A DNA stretch of 64,000 bases from Verrucomicrobiota bacterium (GTDB taxonomy: Bacteria > Verrucomicrobiota > Verrucomicrobiia > Opitutales > Opitutaceae), in assembly GCA_023446865.1 (NCBI GenBank), contig JAEXPL010000115.1, positions 584 through 64,583 on the forward strand, given 5' to 3'. Shown here piece by piece: positions 27,560 to 49,132 of the stretch (positions are counted from its first letter, which is position 1; each line of letters begins with the position of its first letter). The notes under the pieces were generated by a model. The model searched no databases and was not told the DNA's origin. It saw only the letters and a program-made list of their open reading frames with translations. Position numbers and translations under genes: made by a program.

Positions 27560-28675
27560 ATGGCACTCCGAGCACCTCGCACCCCGCAGCCCTCCGCTGC
27601 CAGCACCCCAAAACCTTCCGCCGCGACTGGCGCCTCGCTGCCGGCTCAGGTGGAGCCGCCCGTAACCCCGCCTCCGCCGGCTATTCCACAGCCCGCGCCG
27701 GCGACCCCTCCACGTCCCACCCCAACCGCCCGAGAGCCCGCCAAGGGCTCAGAAGCCGACTTGGTTGCGCATTTGCGGGCGGAAGGGCCGAAGGCCATCG
27801 CCACGGCTTTGGGAGTCACTGCCGATGCCCCACAGGTGGGCGAGTATCTCGAATGCGCGGTCGCCTACGTCTCGAATCGCAACGGCCAGCAGTACGCGAA
27901 CATCCTGAAGGCGACCCCAGGCAGCGTTGTGCAGGCCGTCGCGAAACTGGCGGCGTTGCGACTCAAGTTGATCGAGGACCAGGGACTCGCGTTCCTGACG
28001 ACCCGCTCGATCAAGGACCAAGCGACCGGGGAATACATCATTGTGGCTGTCGGCACTCCCGGGATCCGTGGCATGGAAAATGTACTGAAGGACGAGGGCA
28101 TCCGTTACACGGTCAACAGCAACGCGGTCCGTCGGCAGGATCATTTCAAGGTGGTGCAGGGCACCGTCGGCAATCGCACGGTGGAGTTCACTCCGAACAC
28201 CCAGCCGGATTTCACCAAGCCCAACGACGTCATCGCGTCCTACGCGGTCCTCACGAGTGAATCACAGCAGGAGATCGTCGTCACGAAGACGCTGCGCGAG
28301 CCGACGGTGGCGTTGGCCGAGTGCGTGCAGATCGCGAAGGCCCGCGCCGAGCAGGCGGGGGCGAAGTTCGATGAGACGGCCGCGAAGCAGCAGTTCAAGG
28401 CCCTGGTGGATGAGCGCGCGAAGGGACGGAAGGGCGCGAAGCTGCCACTTGAGGAGGTCGGCATCGAGATCATCAACCCCGGCTACAGCGGAGTGGTGAA
28501 AGCTGCCGAGTACCGGTCGTTGCGCGAAGCGTTGCGCATCGCTTCGCGCACCTGGTCGAAGAACGAGACCCTCTCCGAGCTCATCACCAGCGGCGACGAG
28601 TCGCGTGCGACCACGCCACGCCGCCCCGTCGCTGTGACCGAGGGGGAGGATGAGGAGGAGGGCCAGCGGGTATAA
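27560..28675 (+). CDS. RecT-like single-strand annealing protein (tentative) with a Pro/Ala-rich N-terminal extension; tail EEEGQRV
   Basis: The order of blocks (SVVQAVAKLAALRL, GLAFLTTRS, IIVAVGTPGIRGM, AVRRQDHFKV, VIASYAVL) parallels RecT. Confidence 0.5.
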   Translation: MALRAPRTPQPSAASTPKPSAATGASLPAQVEPPVTPPPPAIPQPAPATPPRPTPTAREPAKGSEADLVAHLRAEGPKAIATALGVTADAPQVGEYLECAVAYVSNRNGQQYANILKATPGSVVQAVAKLAALRLKLIEDQGLAFLTTRSIKDQATGEYIIVAVGTPGIRGMENVLKDEGIRYTVNSNAVRRQDHFKVVQGTVGNRTVEFTPNTQPDFTKPNDVIASYAVLTSESQQEIVVTKTLREPTVALAECVQIAKARAEQAGAKFDETAAKQQFKALVDERAKGRKGAKLPLEEVGIEIINPGYSGVVKAAEYRSLREALRIASRTWSKNETLSELITSGDESRATTPRRPVAVTEGEDEEEGQRV

Positions 28676-28683
28676 TTTCCACA

Positions 28684-29346
28684 ATGACACCAACCCCCGA
28701 GAACCCCAGTCAGCAACACGGGTTGCGAACCAGTAGTGTGGTCGAGGCGATCCATGATCTCCTCGCCTCCCCGGATTTGAACCTCGACAGTCTCGACCCT
28801 GCCACTGTTCGAGCCGTCGAACGAGTACGTCTTCTGGTCGGTGAACCGGTCGGGCAGGGGATTGGGGTGACGGGCAAGACGCCGCGCACCGCCGCCGCTG
28901 TTCTCCGCGGCTATCGTTTCACAACGGAAACCGGCACTCGTGAGTACGTCCCCGCCGAGGACTGTGCAGCGCTTGAAACTGAGCTCATCGCCACCCAGGT
29001 CCGTGCAATGGAATTGGCGGCGGAGCGCGACAGAATGCATGGGAAGATCGGCAAGCTCGACCTCCTCCGGATTTCCGCGCAACGCGAGTTAGCTGAAATC
29101 CGTGCGGGTATATCCAACAATGCGAGCGGCGATCAAGAGTTGGAGACGCTGCGGGGCGAGTTGCGCAAGCTGATCGCCTTCTCCGAACGGAACCCCTTCT
29201 GCGCCTTGGCTCACTACGTCGAGAATGCCCCAGGGCTTCAGGCGGTGGCCGCGAAGGCAGCTCCCTTCAAACTGCCGGATACGCTGGCGCGGCAGGAGGG
29301 TGAGGACGGCGAAGAGTCGGCCGAGACTGAAGGGCAGCGGGTGTGA
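28684..29346 (+). CDS. Hypothetical coiled-coil protein; tail ESAETEGQRV
   Basis: 220-aa ORF starting 8 nt after the upstream stop. Confidence 0.6.
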   Translation: MTPTPENPSQQHGLRTSSVVEAIHDLLASPDLNLDSLDPATVRAVERVRLLVGEPVGQGIGVTGKTPRTAAAVLRGYRFTTETGTREYVPAEDCAALETELIATQVRAMELAAERDRMHGKIGKLDLLRISAQRELAEIRAGISNNASGDQELETLRGELRKLIAFSERNPFCALAHYVENAPGLQAVAAKAAPFKLPDTLARQEGEDGEESAETEGQRV

Positions 29347-29372
29347 AAACCCGAATTCGTGAGGACGCCTAC

Positions 29373-30437
29373 ATGCCTACAGAATCATCGCGCCCAGCCT
29401 ACTACCTCATCGGGACACCGGACGGTGATCAGATTATCCCCGCGCGGAGCGCCGTGGAGGCGGCGGACTTCATGTGGCAGCAAGTGGAAGGGCAGATGTG
29501 GGGACCAGGTGTCGGGAATTTGCAGGATGGACCGAGCGAATACGACAGGCCCTACCGACGGAGCGACATACAGGTGGTTCTTGCCACCGCCGAGAATGTG
29601 AGGGGGTGGGCACGGTTCCTGCCGGTCGAAGTACCCGAGTCCCCCCGGCTTATGCTCACCGCGGAGAACAGAGCGCTTGAACAACACGCGTTCCAGACTC
29701 CGGTTCAGGTGGATATGAATCTCGAATACATCCTCCTCACCGGACAGGATTTCGAGGGCGATAACCGTGAGATCCGGTTCCGCGGGGCGGATGCGCTCCG
29801 CAAGGTACGGGTTTACGGCAGCGAGCTGGCGGCTGGTCCTGATGGCTGGCGGGGCATGACAGCGACTGCGTGGGATCAGCGGGGCCAGCCGCACGACATT
29901 ACCGCGATGGTTTTTGGCCAGAAGCCCTCGCTCGATCTGGCTCAGCAACCCGCGGTCTCGACTCCGGACCGGCGAGCGTTTGATCCGGGCTGCCGCGATG
30001 GAATCGCGGTGGTCGGGCAAGATCGGCGGAGCTTCTCCGAGAGGGTTACAGAGCGCCGAAGTTTCCCCGAAATTATCGAGGCGGCCTCTCTGACGCTGTC
30101 GGGATCTCACCTCAACTTCCAGACCGATGCCGACATATTTGAAGACCTTGTTCGGGAATCTCGTGAGTGTGCAGCGATCATCGCCCCGGGCAATTCCCCA
30201 ACCGCCGCGGATTTCAGAGTAGCATTTGTCGATTACACCATCGGGAAGCTGAGCCGCGAGGAATTCGTCCGAAGGATTCAGAAGCATGAACCGATCTTGA
30301 AGCGTGAGCATCTTACCGCAGTGGAGAGTTCACGTGCGTGTCAGGCGCCGTCCCGAGGTGCAAGGCTACTAGTGGGCCAGGTACGGACTACCGAAGGAAT
30401 CGACACTGATCCGGAATCGGATGGAATCACCCCTTAA
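29373..30437 (+). CDS. Hypothetical protein; N-terminal domain paralogous to 21136..21498; tail DPESDGITP
   Basis: ATG 29373 with GAGGAC 8 nt upstream. The ORF-track GTG at 29343 is an alternative start. Confidence 0.6.
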   Translation: MPTESSRPAYYLIGTPDGDQIIPARSAVEAADFMWQQVEGQMWGPGVGNLQDGPSEYDRPYRRSDIQVVLATAENVRGWARFLPVEVPESPRLMLTAENRALEQHAFQTPVQVDMNLEYILLTGQDFEGDNREIRFRGADALRKVRVYGSELAAGPDGWRGMTATAWDQRGQPHDITAMVFGQKPSLDLAQQPAVSTPDRRAFDPGCRDGIAVVGQDRRSFSERVTERRSFPEIIEAASLTLSGSHLNFQTDADIFEDLVRESRECAAIIAPGNSPTAADFRVAFVDYTIGKLSREEFVRRIQKHEPILKREHLTAVESSRACQAPSRGARLLVGQVRTTEGIDTDPESDGITP

Positions 30438-48147: not shown

Positions 48148-48158
48148 GAGCGCATCCT

Positions 48159-48860
48159 ATGGCAAACTACGTCAGCAACTATTTCGTGGTGAGTGGGCGT
48201 GTGCCCTCCGCTTCCCTTGGGCCACACGGTCCCAACGAGGAGTTCTGGGGAATGTTTCGAGGCCCCGAGGGGCAGAAGGCCGTTCGGGCGAAGGGGTATT
48301 TCGTCGGGCTGGTACCTCCGGATGCCGGCTTTGAACTCTTGTCGGTTGGGACCCAACCCTCGGCGCCCCTCGCAGTCGCGTATTCAGAGTCCCGGTGGGA
48401 TCCGCCGACGGAGATGCTGCGTCAGCTCTCGACGGACTCCCCGGAGCGAACCTTCACACTTTTTTGGGCCGAGCCTACCGAGCCAAGCGCTGGGCTCACC
48501 CAGTTCCGGGCTGGCCGGCAGATCGCGGCATGCCGCTACAACCATAGCTCGCCAGATTACCGGCTCTTGGTCGCAGCATTCCAGGTTTCAGGCTATCCCG
48601 TGGAGAACGCCCCACGGTTCGAGACCTCCGACCGTGAGGTGGTCATCGACGTTCGCGAGGATCGAACCCATGAAGCGCGCCCCTATACTTGGGCGGTGGT
48701 CTGTGACGCGCGGACGCGCGATGAGATTGAGACGTTTATCGAGACCGGGGAAGCCGATGCCCTACGCAAGGCGGAGCAGTATTGCGAGGTCCGCGGACTC
48801 ACGGTCGTGGAGAATTTCGAGGATTCCTCCGAGGAGGAGTCGGAGCAGTGCAAACCCTGA
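48159..48860 (+). CDS. Hypothetical protein; tail SSEEESEQCKP
   Basis: 233-aa ORF. Confidence 0.55.
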   Translation: MANYVSNYFVVSGRVPSASLGPHGPNEEFWGMFRGPEGQKAVRAKGYFVGLVPPDAGFELLSVGTQPSAPLAVAYSESRWDPPTEMLRQLSTDSPERTFTLFWAEPTEPSAGLTQFRAGRQIAACRYNHSSPDYRLLVAAFQVSGYPVENAPRFETSDREVVIDVREDRTHEARPYTWAVVCDARTRDEIETFIETGEADALRKAEQYCEVRGLTVVENFEDSSEEESEQCKP

Positions 48861-48865
48861 CGCCT

Positions 48866-49132
48866 ATGCCTACCCACAACGAAAGCGACTATGATGCCCT
48901 TCGGGGGCAGATCCTGAATGACGAGACCGCCTACTGCGAGGCGGTGAACTGGATGGGCGCCAAGGCGCAGGAGGAAGGCAACCACACCTACGTCGAGGAC
49001 GGGAAGGTGTACCACAAGAATGCCACCGAGCTCACGCGCGACGGCTACCTCGACAAGTACATCGAGTTCCGCCTCAGCCAACAGGAGAGCGAGGCCGCCG
49101 GCGAGGAAGAGTCGGATGGGTGCAAACCGTAG
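48866..49132 (+). CDS. Hypothetical small protein; tail GEEESDGCKP
   Basis: ATG 48866 within ORF 48782..49132. Last gene of the block. Confidence 0.5.
   Translation: MPTHNESDYDALRGQILNDETAYCEAVNWMGAKAQEEGNHTYVEDGKVYHKNATELTRDGYLDKYIEFRLSQQESEAAGEEESDGCKP

Follow-up and report, generated by a model that had tools for sequence, protein, structure and literature searches.

The 64,000-nucleotide stretch of DNA analysed here (the window) spans positions 939-64938 of a 68,065-bp metagenomic contig (ENA ERZ24911381, NODE_39) with a G+C content of ~63%, and the same element was present in two further samples. It carries an array of 28 genes, numbered g1-g28 in order, and the main interest of the locus lies in element-specific C-terminal tags borne by the array products (Table 1; all coordinates are window positions). 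A sequence-only reading of the window had placed 28 plus-strand genes at 27560-49132, which was borne out by the gene calls stored for the ENA contig and by an analysis of reading frames and of G+C at third codon positions; the stored calls contain no minus-strand gene within the array, so that all 28 genes share a single orientation. The tight packing also held, with intergene distances of -4 to 102 nt (the largest between g8 and g9) rather than the 0-100 nt first given, and with five ATGA start-stop overlaps (g10/g11, g13/g14, g14/g15, g17/g18 and g18/g19) instead of seven, plus one possible GTGA overlap at g2/g3. The stored calls start g21 at 44332, giving a protein of 269 aa, and g28 would be 94 aa long if started at the GTG at 48848. 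Array proteins are acidic, with a median isoelectric point of 5.4 as compared to 8.1 for the rest of the contig.

Nearly all of these proteins end in the same way: a Glu/Asp-rich stretch is followed by G-[QVIC]-[KR]-[VP] as the C-terminus. When protein ends were scored for both the acidic stretch and the terminal tetrapeptide, 18 of the 28 array proteins were positive, against 1 of 60 proteins elsewhere on the contig (Fisher's test, 9e-11) and 1 of 3223 open reading frames (>= 80 aa) taken from 80 unrelated topoisomerase III loci, genome neighbourhoods that are not syntenic with the window and served as background only. The sole tagged protein outside the array (52840-53199) is encoded just downstream of it and on the same strand. 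Position by position (n = 28), E and D dominate from -5 to -10 and Q, I, V or C is found at -3; G stands at -4 in 14 proteins, R or K at -2 in 17 and P or V at -1 in 20. The synonymous codons of the tail differ between array genes, the tail is retained where the next gene lies 43-173 nt away, the 28 proteins are not paralogous to each other (best E = 0.015) and 26 of them have no membrane-like segment, from which we conclude that the tail is a protein-level property. The tag thus exists, is conserved at the protein level and is restricted to the array; a literature search found no description of such tags.

Several other origins of the tails were considered and excluded. A Shine-Dalgarno-like or translational coupling signal does not fit the long gaps and the codon variation, which also excludes a repeated DNA element, and the lack of paralogy excludes remnants of a common ancestor. 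Mimicry of SSB tips was excluded as well, the SSBs of the element ending in ...VPY.

Related elements apparently are plasmids of Opitutales (Verrucomicrobiota). The VirB10-like protein matched only two plasmids of PLSDB, both from Opitutaceae, and the topoisomerase III was closest to a Verrucomicrobia genome. The plasmid of the Opitutaceae strain TAV5 (CP007054.1, 99.8 kb) and the metagenomic elements L097 and L103 resemble the window in having homologous AAA+ ATPase, SSB, ParA and g14-family proteins and a syntenic four-gene cluster encoding VirB8, VirB9, VirB10 and a lipoprotein; in addition, the TAV5 plasmid has genes for a relaxase of the TrwC type, for a coupling protein (83040-85619) and for a VirB4/TraG-like ATPase. 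In L097, a RepA_C-type Rep gene comes first, with 17 same-strand orphan genes behind it and VirB8/9/TrbI next, and in L103/L104 a topoisomerase III gene, a Rep gene, 14 same-strand genes and VirB8/9/TrbI come in the same order as in the window. L097 and L103 further resemble the window in having g5 and g25 homologues, and differ from it in their RepA_C-type Rep. Identities between the proteins of the window and those of the relatives reach only 24-45%, and most array genes are not shared.

The relatives also differ in their tag, which is of the form N-x-A-P-L-P-x12-R. Its general version, N-x-A-P-L-P-x(10-16)-R, was found on 16 of the 17 array genes of L097 and on 12 of the 14 of L103, encoded by varying codons, and a PLP-type tag was carried by all three genes of L100. 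At least 13 proteins of the TAV5 plasmid close with [PS]-L-P, 6-10 further residues and a terminus rich in Arg, and here too the codons differ; in L101 several genes upstream of the VirB8-10-like cluster encode Arg/Lys-rich ends without a clear PLP. The window-type tag reappears in L096, a 1.8-kb contig from another sample, where a g14 homologue ends in ...EDRVEAGQMAGCKL and the product of the upstream gene in ...EVQEGGCAVCRP. Rep and VirB-like proteins were untagged in all elements compared. PEP-CTERM-like sorting signals include a hydrophobic segment; none lies between the PLP and the terminal Arg, and a signal of this kind was excluded for the PLP tag. A Termitidicoccus plasmid fragmented by frameshifts gave no usable information.

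Homologous proteins allowed the two tags to be compared directly. Protein g5 aligned with L097_8215_9348 (45% identity over 135 aa, E = 8e-31, blastp), which ends in ...NDAPLPEPDGPGRAHSR; g25 aligned with L097_4662_5792 (E = 2e-20, blastp), which ends in ...QAALPTAASKPPRASR; and g14 aligned with L097_10001_11569 (E = 2e-90), with L103_10001_11554 and with the product of TAV5 77940-79526 (39-44% identity). In the g5, g14 and g25 pairs, each protein bears behind its conserved domain the tag of the element that encodes it. The alignment of g14 with its TAV5 homologue runs to ...EEFRGxxxTRLxRVKV, after which the window protein continues with ...AEACAEEGIAP and the TAV5 protein with ...SPLLPAEGTRRTRGR. 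Only the closest few of the 6040 representatives of the g14 family carry such tails, and the contigs of these few supplied the decisive comparison with the metagenomic relatives; outside the closest Verrucomicrobiota-like relatives, the proteins stop right after the domain and are untagged. Because homologues bear the tag of their own element, the tag is tied to the element rather than to a protein family, and these alignments show it as swapped between homologous proteins of different elements.

Table 1. Array genes and neighbouring features of the window, with the C-terminal tails of the predicted products.
Feature	Window coordinates	Strand	C-terminus or basis
AAA+ ATPase resembling ClpB domain 2	4129..5091	+	Pfam AAA_2, ClpB_D2-small
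Putative Rep, 470 aa, untagged	25459..26871	+	Position only: RepA_C proteins hold the same place in L097/L103
8 direct 17-nt iteron-like repeats, GCGGCATYTCAAKNAAG	26904..27387	+	Putative oriV or operator region
g1, 371 aa, RecT-like annealase	27560..28675	+	Pfam RecT, phrog_148; ...EGEDEEEGQRV
g2, 220 aa, orphan	28684..29346	+	...EESAETEGQRV
g3, 354 aa, N-terminal 80 aa paralogous to 21136-21498 product	29373..30437	+	...DTDPESDGITP
g4, 296 aa, orphan	30444..31334	+	...AESASEDGVKV; 63 nt to next gene
g5, 237 aa, L097 homologue with other tag	31398..32111	+	...TDEEESAGVKV
g6, 203 aa, orphan	32155..32766	+	Weaker tail ...SNEDDGAHMRP
g7, 114 aa, orphan	32820..33164	+	Untagged (...APPAGRR)
g8, 173 aa, membrane-like segment	33176..33697	+	No clear tag
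g9, 347 aa, ArdC (ArdcN + zincin metallopeptidase)	33800..34843	+	Pfam; ...LKEESEGVKVG
g10, 280 aa, orphan	34860..35702	+	Acidic tail ...ESETNETEATRL
g11, 96 aa, orphan	35699..35989	+	...AETEGEGGQRP
g12, 165 aa, orphan	35994..36491	+	...PVDEEGVRI
g13, 383 aa, orphan	36500..37651	+	Degenerate tail ...PPDQEQRLSSA
g14, 680 aa, C-terminal ~430 aa in large function-unknown family	37648..39690	+	...AEACAEEGIAP
g15, 110 aa, orphan	39687..40019	+	...TTDDAPSITP
g16, 579 aa, orphan	40031..41770	+	Weak tail ...VPAGLSTSP
g17, 82 aa, orphan	41794..42042	+	Untagged
g18, 138 aa, hydrophobic segment	42039..42455	+	...EEEVEESDTGVRP
g19, 201 aa, orphan	42452..43057	+	...EEDEERASESQRP
g20, 386 aa, orphan	43071..44231	+	...AVEEEPGAGISP
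g21, 292 aa, orphan	44263..45141	+	...AEQEDGEGQRV; 63 nt to next gene
g22, 170 aa, orphan	45205..45717	+	...AAEGEESAQKV
g23, 149 aa, orphan	45721..46170	+	Acidic tail ...EEAEEEVTESNHI
g24, 181 aa, function-unknown phage family	46173..46718	+	phrog_17767; ...AEDEQDVDSPRP
g25, 317 aa, L097 homologue with other tag	46764..47717	+	...NEQDEDQGCKV
g26, 137 aa, DGHHR motif	47734..48147	+	...SDEETEAGITV
g27, 233 aa, orphan	48159..48860	+	...DSSEEESEQCKP
g28, 88 aa, orphan	48866..49132	+	...AGEEESDGCKP; 173 nt to next gene
Single iteron-like 17-mer directly after g28	49134..49150	+	Motif scan
GHKL ATPase (578 aa) and tandem-OB SSB (275 aa), untagged	49306..52113	+	Pfam; SSB end ...EEGGNVPY
119-aa orphan, sole tagged protein outside block	52840..53199	+	...DADSPESGLKV
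VirB8-like, VirB9-like, VirB10/TrbI-like and lipoprotein genes, untagged	53743..57447	+	Pfam TrbI, 38.3 bits vs cut-off 35

Four array products had been assigned a recognisable domain by the sequence-only reading. The ArdC assignment of g9 is solid (ArdcN PF08401, 3e-34; MPTase-PolyVal PF18818, 4e-32), its HExxH motif being conserved in the alignment, and the paralogy of one domain to the product of 21136..21498 was confirmed for the N-terminus of g3 (E = 5e-11). The RecT-like annealase g1 passed the curated Pfam cut-off only narrowly (25.4 bits against 24) and matched phrog_148 at 1.4e-6. The ParB/Srx nuclease fold proposed for g26 could not be upheld, as no Pfam match was obtained even at E <= 1 and no relative was found among PDB sequences; a single-sequence AlphaFold2 model was unusable (pLDDT, the per-residue confidence score, 46) and the DGHHR motif is the only remaining feature. 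Homologues of g9 are mostly 280-300 aa long, the best being 42% identical, and g9 has ~30 extra C-terminal residues; its AlphaFold2 model has a pLDDT of 86, falling gradually to 59 over the last 7 residues. It is to be noted that 19 of 119 unrelated ArdC homologues (P0003-P0121) end in a Glu/Asp-rich stretch, for instance ...GGEEEVAEDIAA, without the G-x-K-V terminus, so that acidic C-termini may be a wider ArdC feature.

The other proteins, about 24, had been described as devoid of any recognisable motif, and this mostly held, the exceptions being g14 and g24, which match uncharacterised phage families of PHROGs (phrog_2319, 1.5e-40, and phrog_17767, 7.5e-13, respectively). A full HMMER search placed residues ~215-647 of g14 in a very large uncharacterised family with conserved Cys and His residues, whose members occur on plasmids of Xanthomonas, Burkholderia, Marinobacter and actinomycetes; a word-based search found no g14 homologue among 5.8 billion clusters, and scans for the family in metagenome and viral contigs found nothing. 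A weak DUF1281_C match of g27 (0.008) fell below the Pfam cut-off. When 26 orphans were concatenated and compared by tblastn to the 72,556 plasmids of PLSDB, g26 was the sole match, on two Pseudomonas megaplasmids. Megablast of the block against plasmids and phages gave no match, Rfam and tRNA scans were empty, and PADLOC matched none of the six array proteins tested, nor the GHKL ATPase or a 651-aa protein. An anti-defence function could be assigned to none of the orphans.

Upstream of the array lie genes for DnaB, a Fic protein, the AAA+ ATPase, methyltransferases, topoisomerase III and the 470-aa protein, followed by the iteron-like repeats. The downstream side carries the GHKL ATPase and tandem-OB SSB genes, the VirB8/9/10-like and lipoprotein genes, which constitute a partial type IV secretion core, ParA and a second SSB, as well as genes for a C5 methyltransferase, an M50 peptidase and HNH and GmrSD_N proteins. 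NCBIfam gave no match for ten flank proteins. That a GHKL ATPase and a tandem SSB directly follow the array, as first read, was corroborated by Pfam (HATPase_c_3; SSB, in two matched stretches). A position next to an origin of replication (oriV) is plausible: the eight direct repeats are real; the adjacent 470-aa protein matches no Rep family, having neither a Pfam or NCBIfam match nor similarity to the RepA_C proteins of the relatives. The iteron-like 17-mer has 14 matches in the window, against 0.11 expected, and lone copies occur at 3157, 8398, 12336, 32406, 49134 and 62902, the last in the intergenic region before 62926; these scattered single copies suggest an operator for a global regulator no less than an origin. 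The AAA+ ATPase is 35% identical to the product of TAV5 1049-2101, which is encoded there a few kb upstream of the VirB8-10-like genes, and it matches the PADLOC models DolB and PDC-M37B. The contig ends inside a repeat and displays no terminal or circular overlap, and may therefore be incomplete.

Some side observations concern the same regions. The SSBs encoded at 51286-52113 and 58660-59049 end in acidic tips, ...NVPY and ...DVPY, which are unlike both the E. coli-type DDDIPF and the array tag. Acidic ends partly like the tag were seen outside the array in the products of 21136-21498 on the minus strand (...EQEAEEAEQPGHKPNI) and 24880-25416 on the plus strand (...EDEGEEEQDIHSGQSQS). At the contig end, ~3 kb past the window end, two copies of a motif with the palindrome GTGAAAGCGTTTCAC lie 82 nt apart (contig positions 67959 and 68041); a contig from a second sample (ERZ27269209, L004) stops at the same position, and a repeat array probably separates the contig ends. 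Among the relatives, L101, which shares the VirB8/9/TrbI cluster and has a g14 homologue, carries a gene for a ResT/TelK protelomerase at 19901-20965, so that the plasmid group may include linear plasmids or phage-plasmids. Prepilin (N_methyl), T2SS-F and PilT-like genes accompany the VirB8-10-like genes in relatives (L097 from 21556 onward, TAV5 43287-44501, L094/L095), and the transfer apparatus of the group may be an unusual hybrid.

A Shine-Dalgarno motif is absent upstream of most array genes, the leaders being A/C-rich and G-poor (20 nt upstream, 27540-49310), and a TATAAT-like hexamer stands 5-8 nt before the ATG in a few genes, for example before 28684; leaderless or non-Shine-Dalgarno initiation could be involved. 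The gap between g6 and g7 (32767-32819) contains a perfect 12-bp palindrome, GAAGAGTTTGAC AA GTCAAACTCTTC, which includes TTGACA and may serve as operator, terminator or promoter hairpin.

Taken together, the layout of this plasmid family is fixed, with topoisomerase III, Rep and iterons, a long same-strand array of fast-evolving soluble proteins and a VirB8/9/10-like core, and we take the block to be an accessory or 'establishment' operon of a conjugation-related plasmid, probably from an Opitutales-like Verrucomicrobiota host. Since the tag is common to unrelated soluble proteins and restricted to an operon beside secretion genes, it may be read as a recruitment signal for an element-encoded machine, a reading for which the untagged state of the replication and secretion-apparatus proteins and the exchange of tags between elements also argue. 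A common tag that takes a different sequence in the relatives suggests that the proteins are handled, and probably exported, by a common machine. We propose that the tag would be read by the type IV secretion system of the element, recognition occurring via a coupling protein, an adaptor or an unfoldase (the AAA+ ATPase of 4129-5091 being a candidate unfoldase or adaptor), and that ready-made ArdC, RecT-like annealase and orphans would be passed into the recipient before the DNA or together with it, there to blunt its defences and aid establishment. Delivery of array-encoded proteins, including ArdC and the annealase, into recipients is the reading that we tentatively prefer, though we stop a little short of calling it probable. 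Early transcription in the recipient may also occur and would not account for the tag; protein delivery is compatible with an establishment or anti-defence function and changes its mechanism. With somewhat more reserve, we consider it possible that this Verrucomicrobiota plasmid family encodes an 'injectome' of 15-30 unrelated fast-evolving proteins, routed by their tags via the plasmid's secretion machine into the recipient, the different and even charge-inverted tag dialects (acidic G-x-K-V here, N-x-A-P-L-P-x12-R in relatives) each co-evolving with its receptor.

Several points weigh against delivery by type IV secretion. Searches of the 68-kb contig revealed no relaxase, coupling protein or VirB4, so that no cognate receptor can be named here, and no Dot/Icm family that would explain an acidic signal was matched in Pfam scans of the window proteins. 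The PLP-x12-R tag greatly exceeds all described type IV signals in regularity, which could point to a different recognising machine, and the plasmid group also has type II secretion or type IV pilus-like genes and the AAA+ ATPase. The comparative support comes from about six elements, the regular expressions defining the tag were set after seeing the data (the effect being very large), and the transport role is read from sequence throughout.

Among the alternatives, the one that survives best is that of the sequence-only reading, which had taken the block for a leading-region establishment and anti-defence island. Such islands lie within ~30 open reading frames of an origin of transfer (oriT) on the entering side and are marked by strand bias and by a content of known anti-defence genes such as ArdC, or of SSB, methyltransferase or toxin-antitoxin genes (Samuel et al. 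2024, PMC11541004). Part of this proposal stood: the array is a tight single-strand accessory block with ArdC, a RecT-like protein and acidic products, followed by the GHKL ATPase and SSB genes. The methyltransferases cited in its favour lie outside the block, ArdC being inside it and SSB directly downstream, and the described islands likewise combine a long one-orientation run of small uncharacterised genes, ArdC and a nearby SSB with methyltransferases elsewhere (PMC11541004). A common C-terminal tag is not described there, and nothing resembling a single-stranded DNA promoter of the Frpo or ssi type stood out here, the two long intergenic regions folding as single strands with z-scores of -2.1 and -1.6. 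Sigma-70 sites were no more frequent than in shuffled sequence, in a scan for a sigma-70 type that may not be the host's. An ordinary island of this kind, transcribed early from the entering strand and with a separate role of the tail in solubility or DNA mimicry, would fit the acidic ends of about 17% of the unrelated ArdC homologues listed; we regard it as unlikely, though the least unlikely of the alternatives, as the contig carries neither oriT nor relaxase and DNA mimicry explains neither the conserved terminal G-x-K/R-V/P nor the basic PLP...R tag on the homologous proteins of the relatives.

The tag could also be a degron. Its reader, an AAA+ unfoldase or protease, might be the ClpB-D2-like ATPase of the element itself or ClpXP or Lon of the host, the tagged proteins then being short-lived and acting briefly after entry. 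Bacterial degrons usually take the form of C-terminal peptide tags, the ClpB-D2-like ATPase is conserved between the window element and TAV5, and an M50 peptidase is encoded nearby. Since ClpP or another protease partner is missing from the element, a shared host protease would hardly account for oppositely charged tags on homologues, and the arrays always lie beside secretion genes, we find degradation rather improbable as the role of the tag. Acidic tails of the SSB type are a known docking device, and with SSB and GHKL genes directly downstream of the array the tag might instead dock its bearers onto a hub protein (SSB, GHKL ATPase or partition protein) and gather them on the plasmid or the transferred strand, with no export. 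The SSB tips of the element being unlike the tag, and the GHKL gene being undetected by blastp in the tagged TAV5, L097 and L103, such docking appears more doubtful still. A functionless tail, arising as a by-product of composition, as a repeated DNA element at gene ends or as a scar of cassette recombination, is hardly credible: neighbours do often share a subtype (GQRV in g1/g2, GVKV in g4/g5, CKP in g27/g28), but synonymous codons differ, the distance from motif to C-terminus is fixed, the background frequency is minimal and the tail is conserved across elements from different samples.

It is an open question by what rule conjugative type IV systems select the proteins they transfer, and another what a plasmid passes to a new host in addition to DNA; known signals are vague and protein-specific. 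Here, sequence alone picks out some 20 candidate substrates on each plasmid by a tag small enough to be transplanted, and the relatives add a further tag, with swaps between the two that occur naturally on homologues; as one relative is the plasmid of a cultured strain, Opitutaceae TAV5, the idea of delivery is directly testable. If it is true, substrate repertoires could be read from sequence by a rule, a portable tag for delivery would be at hand, and there would be a catalogue of new candidate anti-defence or establishment proteins from a poorly studied phylum; the 'injectome' would then stand as the first conjugative system whose substrate signal is simple and readable. Should the tag be a degron or a docking peptide instead, an operon-wide tag that differs between plasmids would still be, as far as we found, a new form of plasmid gene organisation.

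The closest known counterparts of the tags are the signals of type IV secretion substrates. In VirB/D4 systems the classical signal is an Arg-rich C-terminus; Dot/Icm systems use acidic, Glu-rich C-termini, to which DotM binds (PMC5802825). As in both, a short and probably unstructured signal stands at the extreme C-terminus of unrelated proteins and beside type IV secretion genes, acidic in the window and basic in the relatives. The tags differ from these signals in being much more regular, with G-x-K/R-V/P terminal in the window and PLP at a fixed ~12 residues from the terminal Arg in the relatives, and in marking whole plasmid operons; neither DotM nor any other Dot/Icm component was detected. 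The Dot/Icm E-block recognised by DotM lies ~10-17 residues from the end, whereas the acidic block here occupies -5 to -10 and falls outside the E-block definition, so that the resemblance to Dot/Icm is functional only. Conjugative systems also transfer plasmid maintenance and leading-region proteins by signals that are poorly defined (PMC8406263, PMC11288057). The 'conjutome' of F/pED208, and likewise pKM101 and RP4, is comparable in that a plasmid sends maintenance and establishment proteins (SSB, PsiB, ParA/B) through the mating channel; the signals in these systems are heterogeneous, whereas here one crisp tag would mark about 20 proteins.

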